Shown here in pieces: positions 12,773 through 61,605 of a stretch of DNA of 64,000 nt (its first letter is position 1; every line of letters starts with the position of its first letter). This DNA is from Candidatus Heimdallarchaeum aukensis. Its GTDB lineage: Archaea > Asgardarchaeota > Heimdallarchaeia > Heimdallarchaeales > Heimdallarchaeaceae. Where the stretch lies: positions 1,408,001 through 1,472,000 of the forward strand of contig CP084166.1 of assembly GCA_021513695.1 (NCBI GenBank), in the 5' to 3' direction. The notes beneath the pieces were generated by a model, which saw nothing but the letters and a program-made list of their open reading frames with translations, was not told the DNA's origin and did no database searches. The translations under genes were made by a program, and so were the position numbers.

Positions 12773-14017
12773 TTATATTGTTGTTGGAAACTTTGCATAA
12801 GACCTAAACTCTATCCAATCTTCTAAATGTCTATTGATTATATTTTCAATTTCATCCTGGTCTAGTTTTCTTGCAACTGATTCATCTGATGTTAATAGTG
12901 CCATAATATATCTTTCATTTTTGAACTCTAAATCTCGTAATATAAAAATCTCATTTGTTTTTTCTTCGTCGTCTAAAACATATCTTCTTATTCTTAAGAA
13001 AGGTTCTCTCATATTTGCTATCGTTTCTATTGCTTCATAGTATGCATTATGAGATAATTCTTCTAGCTTTTCATTTTTTGAGTACTGGGCAAAACAGATG
13101 TTACTTCTGAAATCATATAAACCAAAAAATTCTGCATTTAAAGTTTCAGCTACTTGTTTTGATGCATTTGCGATATAATCTTGAATCAAACTTATGTTTC
13201 TAAATATGTGCGAGAATGCACCCAATATAGAAGAGCGTATATGAACACTTGTTCTAAAGATTCCTCTTGCAGGATCAAAGGTGGGGACATTAGAATGTAA
13301 ATATTGGACCATTGAGCCAAAGATGGAATTAGCTTTCTCACTTAAAACAAAATCAGGATCAGATTTATGAAAGAATATGGTCCATGGAACATCTAATTTA
13401 AGTTTTTGAGTGACATTAACAATCTGTTTTAAATATTCAAAGCTTTCTTCATATCTATCTTCAGCTTGAACATCTACTACATAGATAATTGTGTCTGTTC
13501 CAATAAAGTACTGTTCAGGATTGTTTAGATAGTCATCTCTATATATTTTCTGTCCTCCTAATTCATGTAGATGAATATCAAGACCAAAAACCTCTAATTT
13601 TCCACGTAAAAGTCCTCTTGTTGGCGTTAGTGCATTCAACTTTTGAAAAAGTAATGAAAAAGCTCCTCTATGTTTCAAGGCTATAGAAAGTGAGGTTTTT
13701 CCTACATTATCAATTCCTGCTAAAATAATTTTAGCTCCAGAGGTTATTTTTTCAGTTTTTTCTACCAATAAAAGTTTGCTTGCAGCTATCCAACTATCTA
13801 TACGCTCTTTTGGAAAAAGTTTTGACAGATCACTATAGTGCTTATTCCACTCTTTTGCTAATTTTTCAATTGTTACCAAACCAAATTTTTCTAGTGATTT
13901 CACCTCACTTTCTCTAATATCTAAGAGAGCTATTACTGGCAAATCAGCTAAATTATCTTCTTTCCTATAATCCTCTTTCAATAGCTTTTCTTTTATATCT
14001 AACACTTTTTTCACCAA
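12773..14017 (-). CDS. Rag/Gtr-like small GTPase with an N-terminal extension and a C-terminal roadblock-type domain
   Basis: G1 is 'AGIDNVGKTS' and the switch II region is 'ELGGQ'. G4 is 'HKSD', the HKxD variant characteristic of RagA/Gtr1 rather than NKxD. The C-terminal ~150 aa contain 'FLRIRRYVLDDEEKTNEIFIL', which resembles the roadblock 'LTFLRIRSKKNEIMV'. Confidence 0.6.
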   Translation of the reverse strand: MVKKVLDIKEKLLKEDYRKEDNLADLPVIALLDIRESEVKSLEKFGLVTIEKLAKEWNKHYSDLSKLFPKERIDSWIAASKLLLVEKTEKITSGAKIILAGIDNVGKTSLSIALKHRGAFSLLFQKLNALTPTRGLLRGKLEVFGLDIHLHELGGQKIYRDDYLNNPEQYFIGTDTIIYVVDVQAEDRYEESFEYLKQIVNVTQKLKLDVPWTIFFHKSDPDFVLSEKANSIFGSMVQYLHSNVPTFDPARGIFRTSVHIRSSILGAFSHIFRNISLIQDYIANASKQVAETLNAEFFGLYDFRSNICFAQYSKNEKLEELSHNAYYEAIETIANMREPFLRIRRYVLDDEEKTNEIFILRDLEFKNERYIMALLTSDESVARKLDQDEIENIINRHLEDWIEFRSYAKFPTTI

Positions 14018-18071: not shown

Positions 18072-18148
18072 GACCCTGTAGCTCAGTAGGATAGAGCACC
18101 TGCCTCCTAAGCAGGGGGTCGACGGTTCGAATCCGCCCAGGGTCGCCA
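18072..18148 (+). tRNA. tRNA-Arg (anticodon CCU)
   Basis: Cloverleaf folded by hand. Acceptor gaccctg/cagggtc (7 bp). Anticodon stem cctgc/gcagg with loop cuCCUaa. T-loop ttcgaat. Encoded CCA. Confidence 0.85.
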
Positions 18149-29184: not shown

Positions 29185-30930
29185 TTAATTTTCAAAAACC
29201 GAATGCATGTCTGAAATATCGTCTTCTGGTGTTTCTGCAGTGGGGTGTAGAAACACTTCTCCATCTAATATCGTAAAGGGAATCCTCCTTTTATCGATCC
29301 ATGGTGCAATTTCTCTAAATTCTTTAAAGAGATCATTACTTACAATCATTGCTGTTTCCTCTTCTGCTATTCTAAGAATAAATTTATCTCCGTCAACTCT
29401 CGCAGGTAGCATCTTTATAGCTCCTTCTTTCACTAGTTGATCCAACCTTCTTTGATTATCAATTTGATACCTAAGTGCAGCATCTGCAACCGTAATTATT
29501 TTCTTAAAGTTTGACCGACTAAGTTTATTGATCATTGCTTCAATGTTAGCTAACTTCGGATGACCAGCAGCATCTTTTTCTTCCCAAGCAACATTGCTTC
29601 CATCAACTATGACTACATCATAAGGATAAGTTGTTTCTGGAAATATGCGTTCTTGCTCACCTTTAGTTATCTTTACTAATCCTTTAATGATGTCTCTTGA
29701 GAAATAACCTATTCCTAGAAGTACTGTTATTAAAAGAATGATAATTGTAATATTTTTATCAAATGGATTTAACGGTTCGTCATTAGATATAATCTGAATA
29801 TGAAATACACCACTAAAATAAAAACTTGTAAACCAATAAATATCAGGTTGAATTTCCCAAGCTATTTGAATCGAAAGGGTGATCGTGGTATTGCCAGCTT
29901 CTATGGGTTTATCCTTTAAGATTATATGATGCCCTGAAAAGCTTGGAGATATAGCAAATATTTCTCCATTAACCTCTGAAAAAGCTATTAGAGGACAAGT
30001 GATTTCATGTTCAATATATACAACATCATCCTCAAAATTTGCTATGTTATAAGTGATTGAATAGTCTTTATTTAGTGAAGCATTCACGGAAAAATGAACA
30101 TTACTAATTGAAATATTAGGATAACAGATTATATACAAAGGCTCACTTAATACAATAACAGGATTATCTGGATCATCTAGATTTGTAAATGAAACCTGAT
30201 ATGAATGTTTTTGGTATAAAGGCTCATTTGTAAAAAACCTTATTGTTCCTTTGTAGCTTTCTCCACTATTTAACATTAGATTCAAATATGGAAGATAGAT
30301 AATGGGACTAGCTTCTGTCCCTTGCCGATTAACCAAGGCTGAGATAGTTACATTAGTTACAGCTGTACCCCCAACATTTACCAACTGGAAGTCTACTTCA
30401 GTAGTTGAATTACGTTTGAGGATTATTTTATTATTAACAAATGTCATTTCTATTTGCCCACTAGGGAGAACCTCGAGGGTAAAAATAGCAGTTTGATAAG
30501 TGGTTATGACATTTGTTCCATTAACAAAACTTTCGACTGAATAGTTTCCTGCTGGCTGGCTGTAAAAATCTTTTTTGTTGATTTTTACTACATAATCAGT
30601 TGAAGAATTACTAACTATATGCTTGTTTTCAATGATGTTTGCAGTTTCATAAGAGATGTTATAAAAAATAGTAGCATCACCATCAATAGGACTACCATTT
30701 AACCAAGACAAATGGAAAAATAAAATTAAATCATTTATTCCGCGTTTAATTACAGAAGAATTCAAAGATAAAGTAAAATTCACTTCTGATTTCTCTGAAA
30801 AATTATAATAATTCGAAACTGGTTCTTGTGAAACAATTACTTCAGAATTTGACATTGGAGAACTTATTAAGAAACTTGAGAACATGAAGAATGTGAGGAT
30901 AGATAGCGTAATTACTAGCTTTTTTTTCAT
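29185..30930 (-). CDS. Receptor-like membrane protein with an extracellular region, one transmembrane helix and a cytoplasmic Zc3h12a/NYN ribonuclease domain
   Basis: A signal or anchor sequence (MKKKLVITLSILTFFMFSSFLISSP), then a ~380 aa Asn/Ser/Thr-rich ectodomain, then the TM helix 'ITIIILLITVLLGIGYF'. The following ~170 aa contain 'VVIVDGSNVAW', 'IITVAD', 'MIVSNDLFKEF' and 'W..RRIPF', matching the MCPIP1/Zc3h12a NYN RNase motifs. Confidence 0.7.
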   Translation of the reverse strand: MKKKLVITLSILTFFMFSSFLISSPMSNSEVIVSQEPVSNYYNFSEKSEVNFTLSLNSSVIKRGINDLILFFHLSWLNGSPIDGDATIFYNISYETANIIENKHIVSNSSTDYVVKINKKDFYSQPAGNYSVESFVNGTNVITTYQTAIFTLEVLPSGQIEMTFVNNKIILKRNSTTEVDFQLVNVGGTAVTNVTISALVNRQGTEASPIIYLPYLNLMLNSGESYKGTIRFFTNEPLYQKHSYQVSFTNLDDPDNPVIVLSEPLYIICYPNISISNVHFSVNASLNKDYSITYNIANFEDDVVYIEHEITCPLIAFSEVNGEIFAISPSFSGHHIILKDKPIEAGNTTITLSIQIAWEIQPDIYWFTSFYFSGVFHIQIISNDEPLNPFDKNITIIILLITVLLGIGYFSRDIIKGLVKITKGEQERIFPETTYPYDVVIVDGSNVAWEEKDAAGHPKLANIEAMINKLSRSNFKKIITVADAALRYQIDNQRRLDQLVKEGAIKMLPARVDGDKFILRIAEEETAMIVSNDLFKEFREIAPWIDKRRIPFTILDGEVFLHPTAETPEDDISDMHSVFEN

Positions 30931-31976: not shown

Positions 31977-32054
31977 GGGCCAGTAGTCTAGCTTGGATAA
32001 GGCACCTGCCTGCGGAGCAGGGTATCGCAGGTTCAAGTCCTGCCTGGCCCGCCA
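31977..32054 (+). tRNA. tRNA-Arg (anticodon GCG)
   Basis: Acceptor gggccag/ctggccc. Anticodon stem cctgc/gcagg with loop cuGCGga. T-arm gcagg-ttcaagt-cctgc. Encoded CCA. Confidence 0.85.
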
Positions 32055-42412: not shown

Positions 42413-43900
42413 ATGAACAACGATAAGGAATCTATTTTTTTACCACCAGAAGCTATTTTGATTTACAAAATAATTAGCGAAAAAAAGGAACTAGAAATCA
42501 ATGAACTTGAGAACATTTCAAAACTTTCTAGAGGAAAAATTGAATACAACCTTCCTTTTTTGCAAAAACACGATCTATTGGACAGAAAAGAGAGAATAAA
42601 CAAATACTGTTCTTTAACAAAGGAAGGAGAAGAAGCAGAGAAAAATCAATTGATTGAAAGAAGAATATACAACTTAATTAAAGAGAAAAAGAAAGTATCC
42701 TTTGCTCAACTTGGAGATTTTATTAAAGCAGACAAAAAAGAATTGAATGCAGGAGTAGGTTTACTACGAAAACTTGATGCCATCACAATTGAAAAAGGAG
42801 AAATAAGTATAAAACTGCCAGAAAAAGATATTAACCTTGAATTACAACAATATCTCACTAAAATAAAAAAAGAGAAAGTGAGTTATTCAGATAAAATTTC
42901 TCCCCTTGTTAAAAGAGGATTAGTTAATGTAATTGAGGAGAAACAATCATTTTTGATTATAAAAGTTCCTTATTCAAAAATAAAGTCCAGAATTAAAGAA
43001 TTAATTGAAGTAGGAAGATTGTCTTCAAATATGTTAAGAGATGGAAGTTGGAGAAAAACTCAATTGAAGGCATATAACCTAAAAGGGCAACCCCCCACTT
43101 ATTTTGTTGGGAGAAAACAACCTTATGCAAGATTCATTGATACTGTTAAACAGAAACTTGTTGCTTTGGGTTTTCAGGAGATGAGAGGGCCTATAGTAGA
43201 ACTAGAATTCTGGAATTTCGATGCCTTATTCCAAGCTCAAGATCACCCAGCTAGGGAGTGGTCAGATGTTTATAGAGTTTCAAACCCTAAACACGGTAAG
43301 CTTCCTAAAGAAGAATATGTTACTAATGTTCAGCAAGCTCATGAAAATGGGTATAATACAGGAAGTAAAGGTTGGAGATACAAATGGGACCCTAAAAAAA
43401 GCTCAAGACTGGTTTTACGAGCACAAGGCACTTCTGTCAGCGCTCGAACTCTAGTAGGTTTGAAAATTCCCTCAAAATACTTTAGCATTTCTCGATGTTA
43501 CAGACCAGATACTGTTGATGCTACTCATCTTTCTGAATTTAACCAAGTTGAAGGTATTGTAGTTGATCCTTCTATAACTTTCAGAGATCTTTTAGGAATA
43601 CTAGAAACGTTTGCCCTAGATGTTGCTGGAGCAGAAGAATGTACATTTAAGCCCGATTATTACCCCTTTACTGAACCTTCTGTTGAACTTAGCGTTGTTG
43701 ATCCAAATCTTGGAAGAATAGAATTTGGAGGAGCAGGCATCTTTCGTCCAGAGGTAACCAAACCATTTGGTATAGATGCACCAGTAATAGCTTGGGGTTT
43801 AGGAATTGATAGACTGTTCATGGTTAAGTACGGAATAACAGACATCAGAGAGCTATTTAGTCACAAAATGGAGTGGTTACGTTCCACAAAAATGGTATAG
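42413..43900 (+). CDS. pheS: Phenylalanine--tRNA ligase alpha subunit (archaeal type)
   Basis: Class II aaRS motifs ('FRPDYYPFTEPS' and 'GAGIFRPEV'). N-terminal wHTH repeats typical of archaeal/eukaryal PheRS alpha. 495 aa. Confidence 0.9.
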   Translation: MNNDKESIFLPPEAILIYKIISEKKELEINELENISKLSRGKIEYNLPFLQKHDLLDRKERINKYCSLTKEGEEAEKNQLIERRIYNLIKEKKKVSFAQLGDFIKADKKELNAGVGLLRKLDAITIEKGEISIKLPEKDINLELQQYLTKIKKEKVSYSDKISPLVKRGLVNVIEEKQSFLIIKVPYSKIKSRIKELIEVGRLSSNMLRDGSWRKTQLKAYNLKGQPPTYFVGRKQPYARFIDTVKQKLVALGFQEMRGPIVELEFWNFDALFQAQDHPAREWSDVYRVSNPKHGKLPKEEYVTNVQQAHENGYNTGSKGWRYKWDPKKSSRLVLRAQGTSVSARTLVGLKIPSKYFSISRCYRPDTVDATHLSEFNQVEGIVVDPSITFRDLLGILETFALDVAGAEECTFKPDYYPFTEPSVELSVVDPNLGRIEFGGAGIFRPEVTKPFGIDAPVIAWGLGIDRLFMVKYGITDIRELFSHKMEWLRSTKMV

Positions 43901-45604
43901 GTGAAAAAGATGGTCACTATAAAAGCAAGTTATACTAAAATGTTAGAAACTCTTGGGAAGAATCTTCCAATAGAAGAATTGGATAGACTACTTTCTTTTG
44001 CCAAATCTGAAATAGACGAATATGTAGAAGAAGAAGATATGCTAGTAATAGATGTAAAAACAAGTAACCGTCCAGATTTATGGATTCCTGAAGGGATGAT
44101 AAGAGAGATAAAAGGCATATGGGGAGAAGAAAAAGGTATTCCAAAGTTAGAACTAAAAGAAAGCGATTATAAAGTTATTGTAGATCCAAAACTATCTAAA
44201 TCCAGACCCTTTATTGCTTGTGCTATTGCAAAAAATGTCACATTAACAGATTATAATATCAAACAACTAATGCAATTATCAGAAAAAATTGATCATTCCT
44301 ATGGAAGGAGAAGAAAAAGATCTTCTATTGGAATGTACAACTTATCCATGATAAAAAGCCCTATTGAATATAAAGTAATTGACAAAAATCACAAATTCAT
44401 TCCTCTTGGTTATACAGAACCACAATATCTAGAAACAATTTTAGAAACTCATGAAAAAGGAAAGGAATTTGGCTACATTGTCAAAGGTTATGGCCATTAT
44501 CCTATTCTTTTATCAGCAGATGGATTAACACTCTCTATGCCTCCAATCATCAACAGCAATGATGTAGGTAGAGTTACAGAAGAGACAACTGATATGTTAA
44601 TTGAAGTAACAGGAACTCACCTTGGTACAGTACATGTCGTCTTAAACATTCTATGCCAAACATTAGGAGATTTAGGAGCAGAATTATATAATGTAACAAT
44701 AGAATACCCAAAAGAGATATTGGATAAAACTATAGTTACACCTACAATAGAATATGAAGAAATTAAAATTAACCTCAAAGAGGTAAACAAATATCTGGGA
44801 ACTAAACTAAAACCGAAAAAGGTGGAGGAGGTATTAAACAAAAGAAGATTTGATGTCAAGAAAATAGAAAAAGACATGATGACAGTACTTATTCCTCCTT
44901 ATAGAACAGACATTTTACATTGGGTTGATATTGCTGAAGAAATCGCAATTGGCTTAGATTACAACAAAATGGGACCTACAAAATGGAAAGTCCTTACAAC
45001 AGGTGGGCTTTTACCTGAAACAGAAAGTGAAAACATTGTAAGAGATATACTTGTTGGAACTGGAGCAATAGAAGTAATAACAAACACCTTAACTGACCCT
45101 GAGATTCTAACAGCAAATGTTAACATTGAAGAAGACAATTTTGTAAAGATTTCAAATCCAGTAAGCAAAAACTATAGTGTTATTCGAAATATGATTTTCC
45201 CAAATTTAATAAATGTACTTTCTAAAAACACTCATGAAACATATCCCCAAATAATCTTCGAAGTAGGAGAAATTGTAAAGTTAGAAGAAGGAAGAACTTG
45301 GACACAAACAAACGCAGCTTATATGCTAGCGGACACAGAAACAAGCTTTGAAGATGCCCACAAGGTCCTAGATCAAATGATGAAATTACTAGAAACTGAT
45401 TATAACCTCATAGAGACTGAACATCCATCGTTTATTAGGGGCAGATGCGCAGAAATACAAGTTAATGGCAAAACTTGCGGGATCATTGGAGAGGTTAATC
45501 CAGAGGTTTTAGAAAAAAACCAGATATGGATGCCTACAGTAGGTTTTGAAATAGAATTACCATTAATTCCCTCTTTAGAATGTAAAAAGAAGTATACTTA
45601 TTGA
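43901..45604 (+). CDS. pheT: Phenylalanine--tRNA ligase beta subunit (archaeal type)
   Basis: 567 aa. B3/B4 and B5-like regions. Lies directly after pheS with no gap. Confidence 0.85.
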   Translation: MKKMVTIKASYTKMLETLGKNLPIEELDRLLSFAKSEIDEYVEEEDMLVIDVKTSNRPDLWIPEGMIREIKGIWGEEKGIPKLELKESDYKVIVDPKLSKSRPFIACAIAKNVTLTDYNIKQLMQLSEKIDHSYGRRRKRSSIGMYNLSMIKSPIEYKVIDKNHKFIPLGYTEPQYLETILETHEKGKEFGYIVKGYGHYPILLSADGLTLSMPPIINSNDVGRVTEETTDMLIEVTGTHLGTVHVVLNILCQTLGDLGAELYNVTIEYPKEILDKTIVTPTIEYEEIKINLKEVNKYLGTKLKPKKVEEVLNKRRFDVKKIEKDMMTVLIPPYRTDILHWVDIAEEIAIGLDYNKMGPTKWKVLTTGGLLPETESENIVRDILVGTGAIEVITNTLTDPEILTANVNIEEDNFVKISNPVSKNYSVIRNMIFPNLINVLSKNTHETYPQIIFEVGEIVKLEEGRTWTQTNAAYMLADTETSFEDAHKVLDQMMKLLETDYNLIETEHPSFIRGRCAEIQVNGKTCGIIGEVNPEVLEKNQIWMPTVGFEIELPLIPSLECKKKYTY

Positions 45605-50999: not shown

Positions 51000-51074
51000 T
51001 GGAGCCCCGGAGGGGAATTGAACCCCTGACCTGCGGATTACGAATCCGACGCTTTACCACTTAGCCACCGAGGC
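51000..51074 (-). tRNA. tRNA-Thr (anticodon CGU)
   Basis: The reverse complement folds as a cloverleaf. Acceptor gcctcgg/ccggggc with one G-U pair. Anticodon loop uuCGUaa. T-arm agggg-ttcaatt-cccct. Encoded CCA. Confidence 0.8.
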
Positions 51075-52579: not shown

Positions 52580-54931
52580 TTGGTTTTAATTAAAAGATTG
52601 ATTTTTTTCAAAAATCGTAAAAATGTTTATTATCTTTCATACGTAAATAAATTGGATAATATGGTAATACAAGAAGAGAGTAAGGACATCATAGAAGACT
52701 CACCTTTTAACCGCCTTGTTCTTGCAGAAATGGAGAGAGAACGACTTTACTCTACATTTGCTTTAGTTGACGAATTTAATGAAATTGCGTCTTCATGGTT
52801 AGAATTTTCAGATTTTTGTGCAAAATCATTATTTAATTTAACAAATTTATCATTTCTTCTCTATGAGCGGTATCTTGATGAATTTAATAGAGATAAGCAA
52901 CAAATAGAGATAAATTTTGAACGTAAAAGCTTCATTATTAAGAGAATAGAAAATCTGCAACAATTCCAAATGGAAGCAGCTATTTTAATGATTCTCTATG
53001 CAGATATTGTTAACACAGGCATTTTTGAGTCTAAACCTGCAGAAAATTTTTGTTATTTAAACATTGAAGGATATAAGGTTCTTGAGAAAATCTCTTCTAC
53101 ATATTTCGATTCTACTCATCCCAGGGCCTCATCAATTGAAGATATTATGGTAAAGTTATTTACAATAAGTCAAAAAGTCCAAATTGTGAAGATACTAAAT
53201 GATTCGCCAATTAAAAAAGCAAAAGAACCATCTTTTATTCAAGAACAACTTGAGTTGGAAAGATTATTAGCAAGTTTTGAGTTTGATTTTATTGCTAAGT
53301 TAATAGAAGAACTCGGAAAAAGATGGTGGTGGTATGACCCAATTGCAATACATTTTAGCTATGAAAGAGCAATGAAACACTTAGAAAAATCTCTTTCCCT
53401 TTTAGAACATAGTGAGGAAAATGTTCTACAAATTAAAGAAGAAATTAAAAATAAGATCTCAACAATAGATAAAATTTGGAGAAATAAAGCACTAATTGAT
53501 CACTTTTATAGAATCACATTAGAAGCAGCTAAAAAAGACAACTTTGTTGCAAGCATCGAATACCTAAACTTAATTTTAGGATTAATCGATGAAATCATTG
53601 AATATTTTCAAAACAATAATGAACATTTAGAAAGCGAAGAACAATTTTATGAAGAAATAGAAGAACGTAAAAACGATTTAAAAGTTTTTCATATTGTTGT
53701 CAGACTAGCTCTTTCTGTAGCTGAAATCATAAACAAACAAACCTCAATAGATAAAGCATTGTTAGAAAAAAAACTTACAGAAATAGAAAAAATATGCAAA
53801 GATTCTTCATTGTTTTCCAATATAAATTACTTCTCTGAAATTATTTATGTTTATCAAGGCTTTGTTCAAACAGCTAGAATTGGTATACTGAAGAAACAAA
53901 AAACAGAGAAAATCTTGAATAATGCAATAGCACAATTTGAATACTATATAGTCAAACTTGAGAATAGTTTAACAAAAATTGCTAATGATTTTTATAAGAA
54001 AGTCCATAAAGGGACGCTAAAAAGTACTGATTTTAAAAATTACTTAAAAAAGATTGAAGAGTTAAAGTACATCAGTTTCTTTTTACCTAACTTAGAACAA
54101 AAACTCAATCTTACACGAGAAATAGAGTCAATGGAATGTTATATTAAATCAATAGCTGCATTAAAACAGTCACAATCCCAAGAGTTGTCTGAAATTGAAA
54201 AACTCATCTATTATTCGAAAGCACACTATTTCTCAAATAAAGCTTTAGATTTGTCTCAAAGTAAGGAAAAAGCCATAATTCCTGACAATTGGCTTGAAGA
54301 GCAGTTCCTTAAAACTTTCACTGAAGGGAGAGAAGTCGAGTTAAAACTTTTTGAATTATCACGTCAATTTCTTTTTCTAAATAAAGTAATAGATGAAATT
54401 GCTTATTGCTTTGACATTTCAGAAAAAAAGAAAGAAAAAATTGAAAATTATGAGACAGTTCTTCAATTTCACTTTAGAAAATTTGAACTCTTTGAAATCA
54501 TTAACAAACAGATAGAAGAAAATTGTTTAGAATCCCTGAAATACAGAGAAATATCAAATGATATTGTAATTGTAGATAAAAACGTCAATTGGCAAATTAT
54601 TGAAGCTAAAAAAATATTGGCATCTTCAGCAGACAAATTAATCAAAGCACTTAAAAAATGCGCCCTTGGTTATGCAGCAGATAGAAGTAAAGACAACTAT
54701 AAAGCAGCTGTTTTATTTAATGAAGGTTATAAGCTGGTTCAGGAAGCATGTAATATTTTAGACCCACTAACTACATATGACAAACAATTTGCTGATTTGG
54801 CAAAAACAACTTACGAATTCAATTTGTTTCTAAAGGAACTTGAACGTTTGGAACTTGAGAAGAAAAAAATAAAAGAATTTCCTCTAGAAAAAGTGTTGTC
54901 TCTAGTTAAGAAAATAATTTTCTTTTCGTAA
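52580..54931 (+). CDS. Large (783 aa) all-alpha hypothetical protein
   Basis: Long helical, Lys/Glu/Leu-rich ORF with no recognisable catalytic motif. The start is possibly at an internal Met. Confidence 0.45.
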   Translation: MVLIKRLIFFKNRKNVYYLSYVNKLDNMVIQEESKDIIEDSPFNRLVLAEMERERLYSTFALVDEFNEIASSWLEFSDFCAKSLFNLTNLSFLLYERYLDEFNRDKQQIEINFERKSFIIKRIENLQQFQMEAAILMILYADIVNTGIFESKPAENFCYLNIEGYKVLEKISSTYFDSTHPRASSIEDIMVKLFTISQKVQIVKILNDSPIKKAKEPSFIQEQLELERLLASFEFDFIAKLIEELGKRWWWYDPIAIHFSYERAMKHLEKSLSLLEHSEENVLQIKEEIKNKISTIDKIWRNKALIDHFYRITLEAAKKDNFVASIEYLNLILGLIDEIIEYFQNNNEHLESEEQFYEEIEERKNDLKVFHIVVRLALSVAEIINKQTSIDKALLEKKLTEIEKICKDSSLFSNINYFSEIIYVYQGFVQTARIGILKKQKTEKILNNAIAQFEYYIVKLENSLTKIANDFYKKVHKGTLKSTDFKNYLKKIEELKYISFFLPNLEQKLNLTREIESMECYIKSIAALKQSQSQELSEIEKLIYYSKAHYFSNKALDLSQSKEKAIIPDNWLEEQFLKTFTEGREVELKLFELSRQFLFLNKVIDEIAYCFDISEKKKEKIENYETVLQFHFRKFELFEIINKQIEENCLESLKYREISNDIVIVDKNVNWQIIEAKKILASSADKLIKALKKCALGYAADRSKDNYKAAVLFNEGYKLVQEACNILDPLTTYDKQFADLAKTTYEFNLFLKELERLELEKKKIKEFPLEKVLSLVKKIIFFS

Positions 54932-54975
54932 TACCTTTACATAATCTTTAAAATTTTATCAAAAAATTAACTCAC

Positions 54976-55824
54976 ATGAATAGTTTTCTGCTAAACGATG
55001 AGGAAAAAAAACAAATACTTTCTAAATACACAGAATTCTCATCTTTACGAGGTGAACCAAATAAAGAATTAGATCAATATTTTGTAACGCAAGATACTAG
55101 TTTAAAGAGAGCCTTGCTATTTGAACCAGAAGAATACGAAAGTAAGTGGGTTATTTTTCTAGGAGATATGGATCTAGTAGGTTTTCACTTAGGATTATTA
55201 GCAAAACCTAAGGACTTAGCGGTACTTGATATTGATAAAAGAATGCCAGAAATGGTTTTTTCAATGAAGTTTAACTACAAAATTAGATCAGCTCGATATA
55301 TTAACCATGATTTAAGAATAAGGATGTTGGCAGTATTAAAAAATCAATATGATTTTATTTTCACAGAATCACCTATGACAATTGAGGGCAATGAAGTTTT
55401 CCTTTCTCGCGCTGTACAATGTGCAAAAAAAGACGGTAATAGTAGAATAATATTGTCAACAGATGTTAAAGATGAAAAACGAGATGAGTTATACTCACTT
55501 TTTGATCAAATGAATCTTGAAGTTGAGCAACATATTAAAGACTTTAACAGCTACTCCTTTGAGACTGCTTTAGGCAAAAAGAACTCTGATTTATTCATCC
55601 TCCGCGTTTTAGAAAATTCAAAAGAGAACATAGTCAATCACTATTTAGGCCCAATGTTTTTCAGAGAGATAGAACAAGAAACAAAACCATATAGATGTAA
55701 ATGTGGGAATATCATAGAAGTAGGGAAAGATGTGTCTTCATTAGATGAACTATACGAAAAAGGTTGCCCTGAATGTGGTCATAAAGAAGTATTTGTTTAC
55801 AACTCTTCAATTAAATTAGAGTAA
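54976..55824 (+). CDS. Rossmann-fold methyltransferase-like protein with a degenerate DPPY motif and a C-terminal zinc ribbon
   Basis: 'VIFLGDMDLVGFHLGLLAKPKDLAVLDID' is motif-I-like. 'YDFIFTESPMT' sits in the place of (D/N)PPY. C-terminal 'CKCG...CPECG'. Confidence 0.4.
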   Translation: MNSFLLNDEEKKQILSKYTEFSSLRGEPNKELDQYFVTQDTSLKRALLFEPEEYESKWVIFLGDMDLVGFHLGLLAKPKDLAVLDIDKRMPEMVFSMKFNYKIRSARYINHDLRIRMLAVLKNQYDFIFTESPMTIEGNEVFLSRAVQCAKKDGNSRIILSTDVKDEKRDELYSLFDQMNLEVEQHIKDFNSYSFETALGKKNSDLFILRVLENSKENIVNHYLGPMFFREIEQETKPYRCKCGNIIEVGKDVSSLDELYEKGCPECGHKEVFVYNSSIKLE

Positions 55825-55828
55825 ATTA

Positions 55829-56182
55829 GTGAGAAATATGACTCAAGTTCAAACAGAAACAAGATGCGCAAATTGTGATAGGGTAATTAAGCTAACTCCA
55901 GAAATTTTAGAATCAGGTTGTCCAGATTGTGGTTCGTTTAAATTTATAACCAAAAGGATTTTAACAGATTTGGAGAAACAACAAAAAGAAGTAAAGGTCT
56001 TGATAGATAAAGAAATGAGAGAAGAAGATATTACAAAAGATATATCTTCTATAAGACTGAGTACTGAAGGGACATTTGAAATTGATTTAGAGAAACTGCT
56101 CGAAGAAGTAACTGAAAACAAGCCTATAATAACAAGAAATAAGGACGGAACCTATCATGTCAAGTTCCCTGAAAAAAAATAA
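55829..56182 (+). CDS. Zinc-ribbon protein (N-terminal CxxC...CPDCG) with a charged helical tail
   Basis: 117 aa. Its ribbon resembles that at the C-terminus of the upstream gene. The gap to the upstream gene is 4 nt. Confidence 0.45.
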   Translation: MRNMTQVQTETRCANCDRVIKLTPEILESGCPDCGSFKFITKRILTDLEKQQKEVKVLIDKEMREEDITKDISSIRLSTEGTFEIDLEKLLEEVTENKPIITRNKDGTYHVKFPEKK

Positions 56183-56266
56183 ATTGGATAAGCAAAATTT
56201 ACTTTTAAATCACAACTTTTAAATCAAGACTAGAAGAAGTAGAAATGAAATAGGAGTACAAAAAAA

Positions 56267-56932
56267 ATGGTCGCTAAAGATCAACTTGATAAGGAAGATA
56301 GAATAAAAAAGGGAGTAGAAGAGATTCTAAGCTTCAGAGGATATGAAATTAAAAAAATAAATACAGATGATGATTATATTGATTTTTACGCTGAAAAAAC
56401 TGATGAAGACGGAGAAGAAACAAATTTAATTGTCAGATTTCCTAGAAAAGCGAGCATAGGAGTAAAAACAATAAGAGAACTTGATCAATATAGAAAAGAT
56501 GAAGATATTCAAGATGCAATAATTATAGCAGAAGGAGCTTTAACTCACTATGCAAAAAGAGAATGTTTAGAACGAGGAGTGGAAATAATAAGTGGAACAA
56601 ATCCCCTTTTTAATATCTTTGATCACATAATGGTTCCACTTCATATAAAACTTGAAGATGATGAAGTTGAAGAAGTTTTAAAGAAATATCAAATAAAGAA
56701 GCATCAATTGCCAAAGATCCTAGACTCAGACCCTGCGATTAAAGCTATTCAAGCAAACCCAGGAGATATAATAAAGATAATTAGAAACCCAAACATGGGA
56801 GAAGCAGGAGTATATTATCGATATGTTATCAGATCTACATCAAGATTAAGGCTAGCAGCAAAAACTCAACGCTCCTCTTTAGAAGAAGAAGTTGTAGAAG
56901 ACATAGAAGAAGATATAGAAGAAGAACTTTAG
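56267..56932 (+). CDS. rpoH: Full-length (two-domain) Rpb5/RpoH RNA polymerase subunit homologue
   Basis: The C-terminal region 'HIMVPLHIKLEDDEVEEVLKKYQIKKHQLPKILDSDPAIKAIQANPGDIIKIIRNPNMGEAGVYYRYV' matches RpoH/Rpb5-C. The N-terminal ~140 aa ('RGYEI...', 'SIGVKTI') align with the eukaryotic Rpb5 N-terminal jaw domain ('RGYFI', 'SVGVKTM'). Confidence 0.75.
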   Translation: MVAKDQLDKEDRIKKGVEEILSFRGYEIKKINTDDDYIDFYAEKTDEDGEETNLIVRFPRKASIGVKTIRELDQYRKDEDIQDAIIIAEGALTHYAKRECLERGVEIISGTNPLFNIFDHIMVPLHIKLEDDEVEEVLKKYQIKKHQLPKILDSDPAIKAIQANPGDIIKIIRNPNMGEAGVYYRYVIRSTSRLRLAAKTQRSSLEEEVVEDIEEDIEEEL

Positions 56933-56959
56933 AAAAACTTTAGAAAAACTTTAGAAAAA
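56927..56959. repeat. 3 x 11 bp tandem repeat (ctttagaaaaa) immediately after the rpoH stop
   Basis: Three exact copies seen in the sequence. The first copy includes the stop codon. Confidence 0.7.
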
Positions 56960-57042
56960 CTTTCTTTCTTAAAAAAAGTAAAAGAAGAAATGTGATTTGT
57001 TTTTCTGAAAGATTTATTACATCCTTCTTTTCTTTTCATTTA

Positions 57043-57984
57043 ATGAAAGAAAAAGGTAAAATTGTTTTTTTAGGTGGTGGTACAGGAACACCTAAACTTA
57101 TACAAGGGATTAGGAGAATTATTAATGAAGAGAATATCACTGTAATTACCAATACAGCAGATGATATAACTCTTTATGGTTTATATATATCTCCAGATGT
57201 AGATACATATCTTTACCTTTTTTCAAATTTACTTGACACTAAAAAATTCTGGGGTATAGAAGGAGATTCTTATTATACTTATTCATTTCTAAAGAAATTC
57301 GACAAAAATGCTTGGTTCACTTTGGGAGATAAAGATTTAGCTATCCATCTCTTTAGAACACAAAAACTTCAAGAAGGGAAGAACCTTTCAGAAATAACAA
57401 CTATCTTAGCCAATCGTTTAAATATAAAAGCAAAAATTTTACCATGTACAGATAATCATATAGAAACAAGAATTGTTACAAAAAATGGCCATGACATTCA
57501 TTTTCAAGAGTTTTGGGTACGCGAAAAAGCAAACTTATCTATTAAAGAAATATATGTTAAGGGAATAGAAAACGCGATTATTCCTGATGATATTTTTAGC
57601 GAAATTGAGGAAGCAGATAAAATTATTTTAGGTCCTAGCAATCCAATAACAAGTATCGGTCCGATAATTTCGATAAAAAAAATTAGACAGTCATTAAAGA
57701 AAAATAAAGAGAAATGCATAGCTATTAGTCCTATTGTTGGAGATAGGGCAATAAGTGGACCTACATGTCAATTTCTTGCAACTAAAAACAAAAATTGCTC
57801 AATAAAAGATATAATTTCCCTTTATGAAGATTTTATTACATGCTTTTTTATTGATGAGTCTGATAAGAACATAGAAGAACAAATTAAAAATATCTATCCA
57901 AATTTAGATATTCGAAATGAAAATATAGTAATGAAAGATATTAGTATCTCACAGAATTTAGCAAAAACATTGCTTAAGGTGTAA
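57043..57984 (+). CDS. cofD: CofD/UPF0052-family 2-phospho-L-lactate-transferase-like protein
   Basis: 'IVFLGGGTGTPKLIQGI' matches the CofD N-terminal signature 'SGGTGTPKLL'. The start is moved to the ATG at 57043. Confidence 0.7.
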   Translation: MKEKGKIVFLGGGTGTPKLIQGIRRIINEENITVITNTADDITLYGLYISPDVDTYLYLFSNLLDTKKFWGIEGDSYYTYSFLKKFDKNAWFTLGDKDLAIHLFRTQKLQEGKNLSEITTILANRLNIKAKILPCTDNHIETRIVTKNGHDIHFQEFWVREKANLSIKEIYVKGIENAIIPDDIFSEIEEADKIILGPSNPITSIGPIISIKKIRQSLKKNKEKCIAISPIVGDRAISGPTCQFLATKNKNCSIKDIISLYEDFITCFFIDESDKNIEEQIKNIYPNLDIRNENIVMKDISISQNLAKTLLKV

Positions 57985-57986
57985 AA

Positions 57987-58775
57987 ATGGAAATCTCTCC
58001 ACCTATTATTCAATCTGCATTAGCGGGATATACAACACCATCATTCATTCAATCAATATTAGATAATGGTGCGGGTATGGCTACATTTGGAGGTTATTCT
58101 TTAGATAAATTAACAAATGAGGGATCAACTGAAATAATTAAGAGAAATAGAAAAGAGATTTTACTCCCACGAGATGAAACTGAATTTCAAAAGTGGTGCA
58201 ATCTAAATTTAAATGTAAAAAAAAGTTCAGATAAACAATTAATTGCAATTAATTTACGAATATCTAAAATAGACCAAGAAACTTTAAGAAAAATAAATTT
58301 TTTATCAAACTTTATTGATATTATAGAATTAAATGCTCATTGTAGACAGAAAGAAATTGTAGAAAGGAGAGGAGGAGAGTATTTACTCAAAGATATTAAT
58401 CATTTAGACTACATACTAGAAAAAATCAGAAAAACTTCTCCAAATGATAAAAAGATCGGGATAAAAATCAGAGGTTACATTGTAAAAGACCAACAAAAAC
58501 TAGTGAATGTTCTTGAATCAAGATCTGTTGACTATTTACATATTGACTGCATGGAACCTGGAAAACCCTATGCAAACTTAAAAATACTAAAATCTTTTTC
58601 TGAATTAACAGATATCACTTTAATTGGAAATAACTCTGTTAGAAATGTAAAAGATGTTCAACAAATGATTGATGCAGGAGCTTCTGCTGTTTCAATCGCA
58701 AGACCTTTAATTACTAACCCTAGTTCTATCAAAAGGTTAATATCAGAATGCAAAAACAAAGGAATTCTAAAATGA
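57987..58775 (+). CDS. TIM-barrel dihydrouridine-synthase (Dus)-like flavoprotein
   Basis: 'SALAGYTTPSF' (compare LAPMAGVTD), 'IELNAHCRQKEIVERRGGEYLLKD' (compare DINMGCP...GAGSALL) and 'GIKIRGY'. Confidence 0.5.
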   Translation: MEISPPIIQSALAGYTTPSFIQSILDNGAGMATFGGYSLDKLTNEGSTEIIKRNRKEILLPRDETEFQKWCNLNLNVKKSSDKQLIAINLRISKIDQETLRKINFLSNFIDIIELNAHCRQKEIVERRGGEYLLKDINHLDYILEKIRKTSPNDKKIGIKIRGYIVKDQQKLVNVLESRSVDYLHIDCMEPGKPYANLKILKSFSELTDITLIGNNSVRNVKDVQQMIDAGASAVSIARPLITNPSSIKRLISECKNKGILK

Positions 58776-59377
58776 CCAAGACAGCATTCCTCATTCCATA
58801 TAAAGGAACAAATAAAGCAAAAACCAGATTAAGAAGAAAACTTAATGGAGAAGTTGTAGATAAACTCCTTTTTCGTCTCTTCGGAGCGGTAATTCAAGAA
58901 CTATCAGAAATGAAAATAGAAAAGTCTATATACATCTTAACAAAAAACTCTAATCTTCTTCTTAATGAGAATTGTATAAAAATAGTTGACAAAAAAGATG
59001 ACTTTAATGAAGCTATTGTTGAAGCTGTTAAAGATCTAAGTGAAGAAAATATCATAATCATCATGGCTGATCTTTACAAAATTAAAAAAAAAGAGATTAG
59101 ACGAATTATTAAATTAAGAAAAAAGTATTCTGTGGTTATTGCACCCTCAGAAAATGATGGAACTAGCATTTTTGCATTTTCTAAAAAATTACTTTCTGAA
59201 ATAGAATTCTGTTTTGGAAATAATTCTTCATTAATATTTGAAAAACAATTTAAGCAAAAAGGAATAAATTATTTTAAATTACGCTATAAGAATGTTTTTA
59301 AGGATATAGATAACCTTGAAGATATTCTTAGTATAAAAAAATTAGCAAAAGAATTAAACTTATTCAACAAAAATTAG
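58772..59377 (+). CDS. cofC: CofC-like nucleotidyltransferase (2-phospho-L-lactate guanylyltransferase family)
   Basis: 'AFLIPYKGTNKAKTRL' matches the CofC N-terminus 'IPVkxxxxAKTRL'. The start is taken at the ATG at 58772, giving a 4 nt overlap with the upstream stop. Confidence 0.65.
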   Translation: MTKTAFLIPYKGTNKAKTRLRRKLNGEVVDKLLFRLFGAVIQELSEMKIEKSIYILTKNSNLLLNENCIKIVDKKDDFNEAIVEAVKDLSEENIIIIMADLYKIKKKEIRRIIKLRKKYSVVIAPSENDGTSIFAFSKKLLSEIEFCFGNNSSLIFEKQFKQKGINYFKLRYKNVFKDIDNLEDILSIKKLAKELNLFNKN

Positions 59378-59386
59378 GGATAAAAG

Positions 59387-60532
59387 ATGAAAGAAAAAAT
59401 AGAAAGAGTACAACAGGTTCTAAAAAAACATGAAGTAAATAGTTGGATTGTATTCTGTCACCATGGTTACGACATTCACAGTAAATATTTACTAGAAAAA
59501 AACATTACATCAGCCACTTTTATCATGATTAAGCAGGAAAATAAACCCATTGTTATCACCTCTCGAATGGAAGCTATGATGATCAATAATGATGTATATG
59601 ATGTTATAGCCTATAAAACTCGTAACGAATTAATAGAATTATTAAAAAATTCTTTATCTGGTCTCGAAGATGGGAAAAAGATAGCTATAAATTATGTACC
59701 AAAAGATAATTTACTAGATAATTTTTCTATGGATATTCTTCCTGCAGGAACATATGAATTCTTAACTTCGATGAATAATAATATAAATTGGGTTTCAGCT
59801 AAAGATATCATTAGAGATGTCCGCAGTGTCAAAACAAAAAAAGAAATTGAAAATCATAAAATTGCAGCTAAACTAGCTGAAGAGTTAATGGAAGAAGCTG
59901 TAGAGCAGAAAATTAAACCTGGAATGACTGAAAAAGAAATTAAAGCACTCATTGAATACGAATGTAATAAGCGAGGAGGAATAGCCTTTGAAGCAATTGT
60001 AGCTTCTGGTGCAAATTCTGCTATACCTCACCACCATGCTTCTAAAACTAAAATCAAAGAAAATCAAGTTTTATTAATAGATTATGGGGTTTCCTATAAT
60101 TGGTCAAACAGCGATATAACAAGAACTTATTGGATAGGGAGTAATCCTCCTGAAGAAGTCTTAAGAGCTTATGAGGCAGTTGATGCAGCGAAAGAGGCTG
60201 CTTATAAACATATTAAGGCAGGAGTTTTCGCTTCAGAAGTTGAAAATGCGGTAAGAGAAACAATGAAAGAATTTGGCTTCGATCCTGAAAAATATTTTAT
60301 CCATTCTACTGGCCATCCTTTAGGTATAGAAACACACGATATAGGTGTAGGAATATACAAAGCTTCAGAATCAGTAGCTGATAAACCTCTAATAGAAAAT
60401 TCTGTAGTAACCGTTGAACCTGGCCTATATTTCGAAGGAAAATTTGGGATCAGACTAGAAGATGATTGTGTGGTTACAAAAGACGGTAGCATAAGATTAT
60501 CAAATACTCCAAAAGAGATTATTACCCTTTAA
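59387..60532 (+). CDS. M24-family Xaa-Pro aminopeptidase/dipeptidase
   Basis: 'HSTGHPLGIETHD', 'VEPGLY' and 'RLEDD' metal-ligand motifs of the creatinase/prolidase fold. Confidence 0.85.
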   Translation: MKEKIERVQQVLKKHEVNSWIVFCHHGYDIHSKYLLEKNITSATFIMIKQENKPIVITSRMEAMMINNDVYDVIAYKTRNELIELLKNSLSGLEDGKKIAINYVPKDNLLDNFSMDILPAGTYEFLTSMNNNINWVSAKDIIRDVRSVKTKKEIENHKIAAKLAEELMEEAVEQKIKPGMTEKEIKALIEYECNKRGGIAFEAIVASGANSAIPHHHASKTKIKENQVLLIDYGVSYNWSNSDITRTYWIGSNPPEEVLRAYEAVDAAKEAAYKHIKAGVFASEVENAVRETMKEFGFDPEKYFIHSTGHPLGIETHDIGVGIYKASESVADKPLIENSVVTVEPGLYFEGKFGIRLEDDCVVTKDGSIRLSNTPKEIITL

Positions 60533-60635
60533 TATCTTTTTTTTACTATTTTAATAATGTAATACCCGCGTGTTTTTAGGATATTATTTTCTTTTAAGGT
60601 TTAATTCACAGTTTCTTATTTTAAGGTGAAACAGT

Positions 60636-61250
60636 TTGTCTTGGAAAACTTGGTTAAAAAGTAAACCCAAACATATTAAACTTGGATTTTATGGGGAAGT
60701 AAATGCCGGGAAGACAACGTTAGCAAATGTTATGGGGATGGATTGGGCAGGACAAGAAGTGGGAAAAGTTTCTGAAATCCCTCACGAAACTAGAGAAATT
60801 GCAAAACTAGAAAAAGTTGATTTTAATGTGGATGGGACAAAAATAGATTTAACTTTAATAGATATGCCAGGTATAGCTACAACAGTTGACCCAAAATCAT
60901 TTGTTAATTATGGATTAAGTGCTGGAGAAGCTATGCAAAGAGCTAAAGAAGCAACAAGAGGAATAGTAGAAGCTATCAAGTATTTAGAGCAAGTTGATGT
61001 TGCACTTGTAGTATTAGATTCTACAAAAACACCATTTGATCAAGTTAATTTTACTATTCTTGGGAACTTAGAACATCAGAAGAAGCCATTTATTATTGTC
61101 CCAAACAAAATAGATTGCCCTGAATCAGATGTAAAAACAGTGCAAGAAGCCTTTGGTGATTATGAAGTTGTACCTATCTCTGCCTTGAAGAAGGAAGGTA
61201 TTGACAAACTCTATGATAGTATTGCAAAATTAGCTAAAAAGGTGAAATAA
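60636..61250 (+). CDS. Stand-alone small GTP-binding protein
   Basis: G1 'GEVNAGKTT', G3 'DMPG', G4 'NKID' and G5 'SAL'. 204 aa. The subfamily is undetermined. Confidence 0.7.
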   Translation: MSWKTWLKSKPKHIKLGFYGEVNAGKTTLANVMGMDWAGQEVGKVSEIPHETREIAKLEKVDFNVDGTKIDLTLIDMPGIATTVDPKSFVNYGLSAGEAMQRAKEATRGIVEAIKYLEQVDVALVVLDSTKTPFDQVNFTILGNLEHQKKPFIIVPNKIDCPESDVKTVQEAFGDYEVVPISALKKEGIDKLYDSIAKLAKKVK

Positions 61251-61251
61251 A

Positions 61252-61605
61252 ATGTCTTACAGTGTTGATTTTATTCCAGAAGATGAAACGGGTAGGTTTT
61301 CATTAGTTGAAAAAACCAGATATATTCTCTCTCAAGTCATGCGAAATAAAATTCTTATTTTAGAAAATGCACTCACTCCAGAAGAAGAATTATACTTAAT
61401 CGAGAAAACTATGAATAAGATAGATTATAGTAACTTCGTTGGAATCAAGCTTTTCTCATTTGATTCAGGAGAAGAAAACAGATTCTCAAAAATATTCGGC
61501 AAGTCATCTAAAAAACGGTCTACTTACACTATTGTGGCTCCAAATGATGCAGTTTCTGTTGTAAAAGATGAAAGAGGGATTTTATCAATTAGAATTAATG
61601 TTTAG
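61252..61605 (+). CDS. Small conserved-looking partner protein of the GTPase (117 aa)
   Basis: Starts 1 nt after the GTPase stop, so it is translationally coupled. No motif assigned. Confidence 0.45.
   Translation: MSYSVDFIPEDETGRFSLVEKTRYILSQVMRNKILILENALTPEEELYLIEKTMNKIDYSNFVGIKLFSFDSGEENRFSKIFGKSSKKRSTYTIVAPNDAVSVVKDERGILSIRINV

Follow-up and report, generated by a model that had tools for sequence, protein, structure and literature searches.

In the textbook view, the extra N-terminal 'jaw' domain is found only in eukaryotic Rpb5. Archaeal RpoH corresponds to the C-domain of Rpb5 alone (PMC3906176, PMC2847245) and carries no N-terminal extension (PMC3906176), and Rpb5_N is described as restricted to eukaryotes (PMC3424549). 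A gene within a 64-kb stretch of Heimdallarchaeial DNA (the window, meaning the whole stretch analysed) raises the question of whether a jaw-bearing Rpo5 also exists in archaea. The first-pass annotation had placed a two-domain, eukaryote-style Rpb5 here. The reading frame is present as claimed, with an ATG start and 221 codons, as are the motifs then quoted: RGYEI at residues 24-28, SIGVKTI at residues 63-69 and the acidic end at residues 205-221 (Table 1). The protein consists of an N-domain (residues 1-111), a C-domain (residues 112-190) and a disordered tail (residues 191-221) that is acidic from position 205 onward.

Table 1. Positions of the rpoH features within the window.
Feature	Positions	Strand	Remarks
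Duplicated CTTTTAAATCA (56202-56212, 56216-56226)	56202..56226	+	TATA-box-like pair 41-65 nt 5' of ATG, read from sequence
GGAG, putative Shine-Dalgarno-like motif	56253..56256	+	10 nt 5' of ATG; invariant in PR6 and GCA_054383455.1
rpoH/rpo5 two-domain ORF	56267..56932	+	ATG start, 221 aa; coordinates include the stop codon
N-terminal domain, PD-(D/E)XK fold, Rpb5-jaw homologue, predicted catalytically inactive	56267..56599	+	Residues 1-111
C-terminal domain, canonical RpoH/Rpb5_C, RNAP assembly domain	56600..56836	+	Residues 112-190; PF01191, NF007129
Subfamily-specific extension RSTSRLRLAAKTQRSS	56831..56878	+	Residues 189-204
Acidic disordered tail LEEEVVEDIEEDIEEEL	56879..56929	+	Residues 205-221; pLDDT 33-39
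Tandem repeat AGAAAAACTTT x4 (11-bp unit), running across the stop codon	56920..56963	.	TRF

The C-domain gives an equivalog-level match to archaeal RpoH/Rpo5 (NF007129; 4qiw_H, 8cro_H, 2waq_H, 1hmj), scoring 94.3 bits against the NCBIfam cutoff of 83. The Rpb5_C domain anticipated by the first-pass annotation is clearly detected by Pfam (RNA_pol_Rpb5_C, PF01191) over residues 115-187, with 89.8 bits against a cutoff of 23.5 (E 9e-26). This region is 54% identical to the short RpoH at a Bathyarchaeia locus (L025, best-segment tblastn) and, in Foldseek structural alignment, about 51-52% identical to Thermococcus/Pyrococcus RpoH chains, with target-normalised TM-scores of 0.76-0.84. The orthologue in PR6 (Ca. 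Heimdallarchaeum endolithica) has 95% amino acid identity to the window protein. Canonical RpoH measures about 75-90 aa and heads the rpoH-rpoB-rpoA operon (PMC10833476), whereas the window protein is extended by a 111-aa N-domain and by a tail, and is encoded by a stand-alone gene. In five single-domain RpoH controls, the stop-to-stop frames span 84-120 codons, the two with called ORFs giving 81 and 84 aa; compared with single-domain RpoH, the window protein is longer by about 110 residues at the N-terminus and by a tail of about 30. We put the probability at about three in four that this is a gene for RNA polymerase subunit Rpo5 (RpoH) in a two-domain, Rpb5-like form.

The N-terminal domain and the Rpb5 jaw

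On the N-terminal half, Pfam returns Mrr_cat (PF04471) at 36.8 bits (cutoff 21), NA-iREase1 (PF22722) at 30.4 bits (cutoff 27) and RNA_pol_Rpb5_N (PF03871) at 25.7 bits, under its gathering score of 27. With the whole protein, PF03871 scores 23.2 bits and its match is limited to profile positions 26-85. Of the two profiles proposed as a check in the first pass, Rpb5_C is above its cutoff and Rpb5_N falls short of the gathering score and is outscored by Mrr_cat. To choose between Rpb5_N and a restriction-enzyme-like domain is nevertheless a false choice, because Rpb5_N is itself classed within the PD-(D/E)XK superfamily (PMC3424549). Moreover, genuine eukaryotic Rpb5 proteins themselves score weak Mrr_cat matches, and the PF03871 model is partial, spanning only the first ~89 eukaryotic residues with the eukaryote-specific insertion included.

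Sequence searches connect the N-domain with Rpb5. When the whole protein is compared with the PDB sequences by phmmer, residues 36-188 align continuously with residues 52-205 of Arabidopsis NRPB5, and residues 49-185 align with residues 67-207 of human RPB5; the alignments with plant, human and yeast Rpb5 all cross the domain boundary. An exhaustive phmmer search with the N-domain alone (114 aa) over 1.84 billion representative proteins yields 26 matches, comprising family members, five eukaryotic Rpb5 proteins (best P0035, E 3e-8) and four spurious hits, with no nuclease among them. Pfam confirms Rpb5_N in the eukaryotic matches P0035, P0051 and P0041, and the spurious hits (P0039, P0044, P0047, P0050) are TPR, LRR, PKD and TylF proteins. 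When a profile built from 13 diverse archaeal N-domains is run against all PDB sequences, Rpb5 chains occupy ranks 1-11 (E 3e-10 to 7e-6), the alignment begins at residue 1 of both proteins, and no restriction-type nuclease appears at E <10.

The same correspondence is visible in the motifs. Helix 1 ends in RGY in both the window protein and eukaryotic Rpb5; strand 3 and the following loop read IVRFPRKASIGVKTIR in the window and FVFFPEEPKVGIKTIK in eukaryotes; strand 4 is hydrophobic in both; and the T..A[KR] motif appears as THYAK in the window and as TPSAK or TPFAR in eukaryotes. The set common to the archaeal N-domain and Rpb5 is thus RGY, FP..[IV]G[VI]K.[IV][RK] and T..A[KR], the central element extending in the comparison with eukaryotic Rpb5 to hhh[RF]FP....[IV]G[VI]K.[IV][RK]. 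Eukaryotic Rpb5 (RPABC1/POLR2E; PF03871 + PF01191), a subunit common to Pol I, II and III, agrees with the window protein in its two domains, in their order and in having a comparable linker, and ranks first or jointly first in the sequence, profile and fold searches. It differs in the length of the N-domain, about 140 aa compared with about 111 aa in the archaeal protein. Between helix 1 and strand 3, the archaeal form lacks the insertion of 13-18 residues seen in human, fly and Arabidopsis. Further differences are that the window protein remains under the PF03871 cutoff, bears an extra disordered charged tail and belongs to an archaeon with a single RNAP. From these alignments, the homology of the N-domain with the jaw domain of eukaryotic Rpb5 is judged specific and collinear, with Rpb5 as the nearest relative outside the family, and the jaw homology proposed in the first pass is upheld.

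The predicted topology of the N-domain, alpha-beta-beta-beta-alpha-beta-alpha-beta, is that of a PD-(D/E)XK core, and the domain has both the Mrr-like core fold (alpha-beta-beta-beta-alpha-beta) and the Mrr_cat profile match. The N-domain model reaches a pLDDT of 89.4 and a pTM of 0.82; the full-length model reaches a pLDDT of 77.5, with the tail disordered over residues 192-221. In Foldseek, the full-length model matches Rpb5 chains of the PDB at ranks 1-36 over about 200-220 columns, in line with a collinear two-domain architecture. Ranks 24 and 29 are the viral Rpb5 of ASFV and the others are eukaryotic; single-domain archaeal RpoH chains follow, and the first nucleases appear at E ~1.5e-3. 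Searched alone, the N-domain model gives its best TM-scores with Rpb5 (0.63-0.67), while EndoMS is first by E-value. Structure-based identity is 26% and 21% with Rpb5 and 10-17% with nucleases. By structure alone, the modelled N-domain stands at the same distance from Rpb5 and from Mrr/NucS nucleases. Because structure fails to separate the two, the specific link to Rpb5 rests on the sequence profiles.

Mrr-like and NucS(EndoMS) nucleases (PF04471, PF22722; AF1548 1y88, NucS 2vld) share the core fold with the N-domain. They are not retrieved by sequence-based searches with it, and with the 1y88/2vld type the structure-based identity is 16-17%; the N-domain differs from these enzymes in lacking the (D/E)xK of strand 3 and in being fused to an RNAP subunit. 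Unlike eukaryotic Rpb5, it keeps the canonical nuclease core (alpha-beta-beta-beta-alpha-beta) and conserves D39 and R57. D39 lies on strand 2 and is at least 90% conserved, so that the canonical D...(D/E)xK arrangement is present in its first element and missing in its second: strand 3 reads L-I-V-R57-F-P, and alignments and model place a hydrophobic residue two positions before R57 in 13 of 13 diverse members. The domain is therefore predicted not to be a nuclease. In structure it is an Mrr/NucS-type core that has diverged little, and in sequence it is specifically a relative of Rpb5_N. It has the look of an ancestral and inactivated jaw, because a nuclease-like structure is combined in it with Rpb5_N-specific sequence, no (D/E)xK and no eukaryotic insertion.

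An alternative is a convergent fusion, in which an unrelated restriction-endonuclease domain of Mrr/NucS type, possibly active, joined archaeal RpoH independently and resembles Rpb5_N through shared superfamily membership only. The Pfam ranking fits this reading, although eukaryotic Rpb5 itself weakly matches Mrr_cat. It is made unlikely by the sequence searches, which retrieve Rpb5_N and no nuclease, and by the structure-based identity, which is highest with Rpb5. The domain order, the junction and the motifs (RGY, FP..VGVK.I[RK], T..A[KR]) are also those of Rpb5, and strand 3 is devoid of the (D/E)xK of an active enzyme.

Genomic context and polymerase membership

The gene order in the window is unknown-783aa, BpsA-like, OapC, rpoH, CofD, Dus-like TIM barrel, CofC, M24 peptidase, GTPase and OapB. 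This arrangement is conserved in 21 loci, and the most distant Heimdall locus (37% identity) retains rpoH-CofD-Dus-CofC. A search of the 64-kb window for the NADFDGD and GQKG motifs reveals no RNAP gene, so the gene lies outside an RNAP operon, as noted in the first pass. None of the six two-domain lineages examined has the gene linked to rpoB; in Hodarchaeota, the P0067 lineage, the P0040 lineage and Bathyarchaeia it occupies a different neighbourhood each time, away from rpoB. In the single-domain controls (L023-L027), by contrast, rpoH heads the rpoH-rpoB-rpoA operon in 5/5. The two-domain form and the escape from the operon go together.

Because the two-domain gene is never next to rpoB, genomic context lends no support to RNAP membership. 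The protein could then be a paralogue that acts outside the polymerase, for example a duplicated RpoH-like regulator or DNA-associated factor, the true subunit H being short and encoded beside rpoB. The uniform separation from rpoB in six lineages, set against the linkage in every control, and the canonical short rpoH of other Bathyarchaeia favour this possibility. On the other side, the rpoH-rpoB-rpoA-L30e cluster (str/L30e) is reported to be dispersed as a whole in the complete PR6 and PM71 genomes (PMC10833476), so that unlinking there is not peculiar to rpoH. Purifying selection acts on the highly conserved C-domain (dN/dS 0.05, window against PR6), and the protein scores above the RpoH equivalog cutoff. 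A C-domain search finds no separate short RpoH from Heimdallarchaeaceae, the sole such entry being a truncated call of the same gene. A paralogue is accordingly improbable.

Distribution and origin of the two-domain form

The close family consists of 29 clusters with 56-85% identity, all of them two-domain, and those with a name are Heimdallarchaeota or Heimdallarchaeaceae. A profile search detects 103 clusters and adds several more divergent subfamilies of 177-241 aa that are named Heimdallarchaeota, Hodarchaeota/Hodarchaeales or "Asgard group". The two-domain gene is present in 22 GTDB species-representative genomes, a count that covers family-type sequences, as the scan used a six-sequence full-length alignment and family-specific patterns. 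One locus labelled Thorarchaeota (L003) has the synteny of the Heimdallarchaeaceae type, and its label is probably wrong. Within Heimdallarchaeia, Hodarchaeales among them, the two-domain form has a wide distribution.

It also occurs outside Asgard archaea. A protein from a "Bathyarchaeota" MAG, called at 114 aa, is part of a 191-aa ORF; its N-region and the archaeal N-domain are homologues by hhalign (97%, E 8e-11), and its C-domain is nearest to the short RpoH of Bathyarchaeia (64%). This gene recurs together with its neighbour in at least 12 MAGs labelled Bathyarchaeia, while other Bathyarchaeia have the canonical short rpoH. Since one Bathyarchaeia lineage possesses it too, the two-domain form is not exclusive to Asgard archaea and is not a strict Asgard marker. 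This occurrence cautions against reading two-domain Rpo5 as a clean shared derived character of Asgard archaea and eukaryotes. The first-pass annotation had taken the protein as support for an Asgard origin of the DNA. The origin holds and the argument does not: it is shown instead by the window itself (30.9% G+C), which is collinear with the complete PR6 chromosome CP084167.1 at 90.7% nucleotide identity over 11.7 kb.

No published description of a two-domain archaeal Rpo5 was found, including in recent studies of how archaeal RNAP subunits evolved and of Asgard eukaryotic signature proteins (ESPs) and in the supplements of Eme et al. 2023; the asCOG tables of Liu et al. 2021 could list one. 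The eukaryote-type jaw feature probably arose in archaea. We lean slightly towards a scenario in which an inactivated Mrr/NucS-like module was fused to Rpo5 as rpoH left the rpoH-rpoB-rpoA operon, the resulting form being general in Heimdallarchaeia (including Hodarchaeales), sporadic in Bathyarchaeia and vertically inherited by eukaryotes. The two-domain archaeal Rpo5 would represent the ancestral state, from which the jaw of eukaryotic Rpb5 was elaborated. In a neighbour-joining tree of the C-domain (79 columns), the split uniting eukaryotes and two-domain archaea is recovered in 29 of 200 bootstraps, and the position of eukaryotes is not resolved.

The opposite direction, in which Heimdallarchaeia took up an Rpb5 gene from a eukaryote or a giant virus, has in its favour that two-domain Rpb5 exists in eukaryotes and nucleocytoviruses (e.g. 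ASFV). Transfer from eukaryotes is, however, disfavoured because the C-domain is archaeal in character, about 50-65% identical to archaeal RpoH against about 40% to eukaryotic sequences in the same alignment, and because the Bathyarchaeia protein has a C-domain of Bathyarchaeia type. The absence of the eukaryotic insertion from the N-domain also stands against it, as do the conservation of the protein and its stable synteny across deep Heimdallarchaeial lineages. Such an acquisition is very unlikely.

Translation of the extension, the tail and the predicted role

Over residues 1-111, the window and PR6 differ by 13 synonymous changes and one non-synonymous change (dN/dS 0.016), a tighter constraint than on the C-domain. 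The N-domain is under strong purifying selection, and its homologues are conserved down to 25-30% identity across more than 100 protein clusters. Upstream of the ATG, the TATA-like pair is a putative promoter of rpoH's own, and the aligned 100 nt there, made up of the 84-nt intergenic spacer with its flanks, share 97% identity with PR6, compared with 90.7% for the locus. These observations, namely the low dN/dS, the conserved upstream signals, the recurrence in more than 100 clusters and the confident fold, indicate that the extension is translated: residues 1-111 are real coding sequence. An over-extended ORF, with translation confined to the C-terminal ~100 aa in the manner of the 100-aa NCBI call in the near-identical genome GCA_054383455.1, is effectively refuted by this constraint, by the confident fold and wide retention of the N-region, and by the TATA-like and GGAG motifs that precede the upstream ATG.

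The N-domain in that genome, a MAG labelled Heimdallarchaeaceae, is identical to that of the window. Several pipelines give the two-domain gene internal-codon starts, with calls of 83, 100, 114 or 145 aa. Proteins of about 145 aa that match part of the N-domain, considered as an intermediate form, are downstream-Met calls of 195-200-aa proteins. Public annotation thus often cuts the N-domain off, and proteome-based ESP surveys can miss it.

Beyond the Rpb5_C core, the protein continues with residues 189-221, which carry a net charge of -6; from residue 192 on, pLDDT falls below 50. The [KR]S.SRL+L motif at the start of this segment is conserved in the Heimdallarchaeaceae-type subfamily, with S190, R193 and L194 invariant in the alignment. 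A 12-bp GAA-rich periodicity at 56880-56926 overlaps the 11-bp tandem repeat. The 3' end of rpoH is indel-prone, and in the alignment with L028 and PR6 the length varies exactly there. In the near-identical GCA_054383455.1, the acidic tail is missing through a 105-bp deletion spanning the tail, the stop codon and the 11-bp repeat, which could also be an assembly collapse. Among 137 two-domain proteins parsed, about 100 have no tail, about 28 have a basic one and seven, including the window protein, its nearest relatives and a few others, have an acidic one. The basic tails are long (up to 160 aa) and K/T/P/A-rich, and two match the H1-like HC2 Pfam family. The acidic tail noted in the first pass is therefore real in this protein but is no feature of the family, the tailed relatives being mostly basic and one near-identical genome having none. 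Model and sequence comparison describe the tail as disordered and lineage-specific.

By analogy with established knowledge of Rpb5 and RpoH (PMC2847245, PMC7289017, PMC13257274), the C-domain would dock on the largest subunit (Rpo1''), near the downstream DNA, the position it takes in every archaeal and eukaryotic polymerase. The N-domain would be an inactivated nuclease module that lengthens the lower jaw along the duplex of the downstream DNA, the role that Rpb5 has in Pol I, II and III. The disordered tail, acidic here and basic or H1-like in most tailed relatives, would be a lineage-specific accessory, and its charge may tune interactions with DNA or with chromatin proteins. Rpo13 of Sulfolobales, a lower-jaw accessory subunit located near the N-terminal part of Rpo5 and in contact with the downstream double-stranded DNA (PMC13257274, PMC7289017), could be a functional analogue of the jaw extension. 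By description, it is set apart as an unrelated small helical protein with its own gene.

In conclusion, the two-domain Rpo5 adds a core-transcription feature to the eukaryote-like traits of the archaeal class thought closest to eukaryotes, and places the beginnings of the lower-jaw extension earlier than eukaryogenesis. If the archaeal origin of the jaw is correct, the gene product would count as an informational eukaryotic signature protein that has gone unnoticed and is systematically truncated by current gene callers, and the lineage-specific tails, H1-like and basic or else acidic, may link the jaw of the polymerase with archaeal chromatin. The proteins of Heimdallarchaeia would in that case be living structural intermediates on the way from a restriction-type nuclease to the lower jaw of Pol I, II and III. 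As a less derived form, the archaeal protein shows a route from nuclease fold to polymerase jaw, and the function of the jaw domain becomes testable in a simpler, single-polymerase system.

Two-domain Rpo5 in Bathyarchaeia and truncated gene calls

The two-domain form of Rpo5 is also present beyond the Asgard archaea, in 'Candidatus Bathyarchaeota archaeon' GCA_018396975.1. The N-region of this 191-aa protein (locus L029) is a homologue of the archaeal N-domain (97% by hhalign), and its C-domain has the Bathyarchaeia short RpoH as nearest relative. At least 12 Bathyarchaeia MAGs have this gene, which is not adjacent to rpoB; elsewhere in the Bathyarchaeia the canonical short rpoH-rpoB arrangement is found (control loci L023 and L025).

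Public gene calls systematically lose the N-domain of the two-domain rpoH family. In GCA_054383455.1, a near-identical Heimdallarchaeaceae genome, an intact 207-aa ORF (L028) contains a public call of only 100 aa, and pipelines differ on the length of the Bathyarchaeia gene product, giving 83, 114 or 191 aa. The 'RpoH' entries of about 145 aa (P0153-P0159) were considered as a possible intermediate form and rejected, being downstream-Met calls of 195-200-aa proteins.

Gene neighbourhood and other features of the window

The rpoH gene lies in a ten-gene block (window 52580-61605) whose order is the same in 21 Heimdallarchaeaceae-type loci: a 783-aa protein matching nothing in a Pfam search, BpsA-like, OapC, rpoH, CofD, a Dus-like TIM barrel, CofC, M24 peptidase, GTPase and OapB. 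The BpsA-OapC-rpoH-CofD synteny is found at L003 (JBHLQZ010000273.1, 'Candidatus Thorarchaeota archaeon QM1B.68'), which encodes a Heimdallarchaeaceae-type gene with 63% identity. The entry P0058 is also labelled 'Thorarchaeota', yet its cluster, P0036, is otherwise labelled Hodarchaeales. In both cases the Thorarchaeota label probably stems from a taxonomic or binning error.

Elsewhere in the window, the gene for a Gtr1/RagA-family small GTPase, a known Asgard eukaryote-like protein, adjoins in divergent orientation that of a 669-aa protein. Another protein, of 581 aa, ends in a Zc3h12a-like NYN ribonuclease domain, with about 430 N-terminal residues left without annotation.

Positions of features in the window and at the L028 and L029 loci
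Feature	Position	Strand	Remark
Gtr1/RagA-family GTPase	12773-14017	-	PF04670, E 7e-20
669-aa protein	14194-16203	+	weak match to IFT52 GIFT-domain, 31.5 bits vs cutoff 27.2
tRNA Arg-CCT	18072-18148
581-aa protein	29185-30930	-	NYN domain, E 9e-16
tRNA Arg-GCG	31977-32054
PheRS alpha + beta	42413-45604
tRNA Thr-CGT	51000-51074
OapC	55829-56182		'origin-associated protein' homologue
OapB	61252-61605		'origin-associated protein' homologue
Intact rpoH ORF	L028:2680-3303		GCA_054383455.1
Two-domain Rpo5, Bathyarchaeia	L029:3978-4553		GCA_018396975.1

C-terminal tails and tandem N-domains

Two types of C-terminal tail, acidic and basic, occur among the two-domain Rpo5 relatives (window 56879-56963; alignment A1 of the Heimdallarchaeaceae-type subfamily). 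The window protein and a few relatives end in a short acidic tail, whereas most Heimdallarchaeaceae-type relatives carry a long basic H1-like tail, rich in K/T/P/A and reaching 160 aa. At the 3' end of rpoH lie 12-bp GAA-rich and 11-bp (AGAAAAACTTT x4) tandem repeats; this end is missing from GCA_054383455.1 through a 105-bp deletion, a loss that could alternatively reflect assembly collapse.

In P0046, a 481-aa protein annotated as RpoH, Rpb5_C follows a tandem array of two or three N-domain-like modules, of Mrr_cat/Rpb5_N-like type, and a basic tail is also present, an observation that also covers the cluster members P0062-P0066. The tandem modules of P0046 are a further elaboration of the two-domain Rpo5 architecture.
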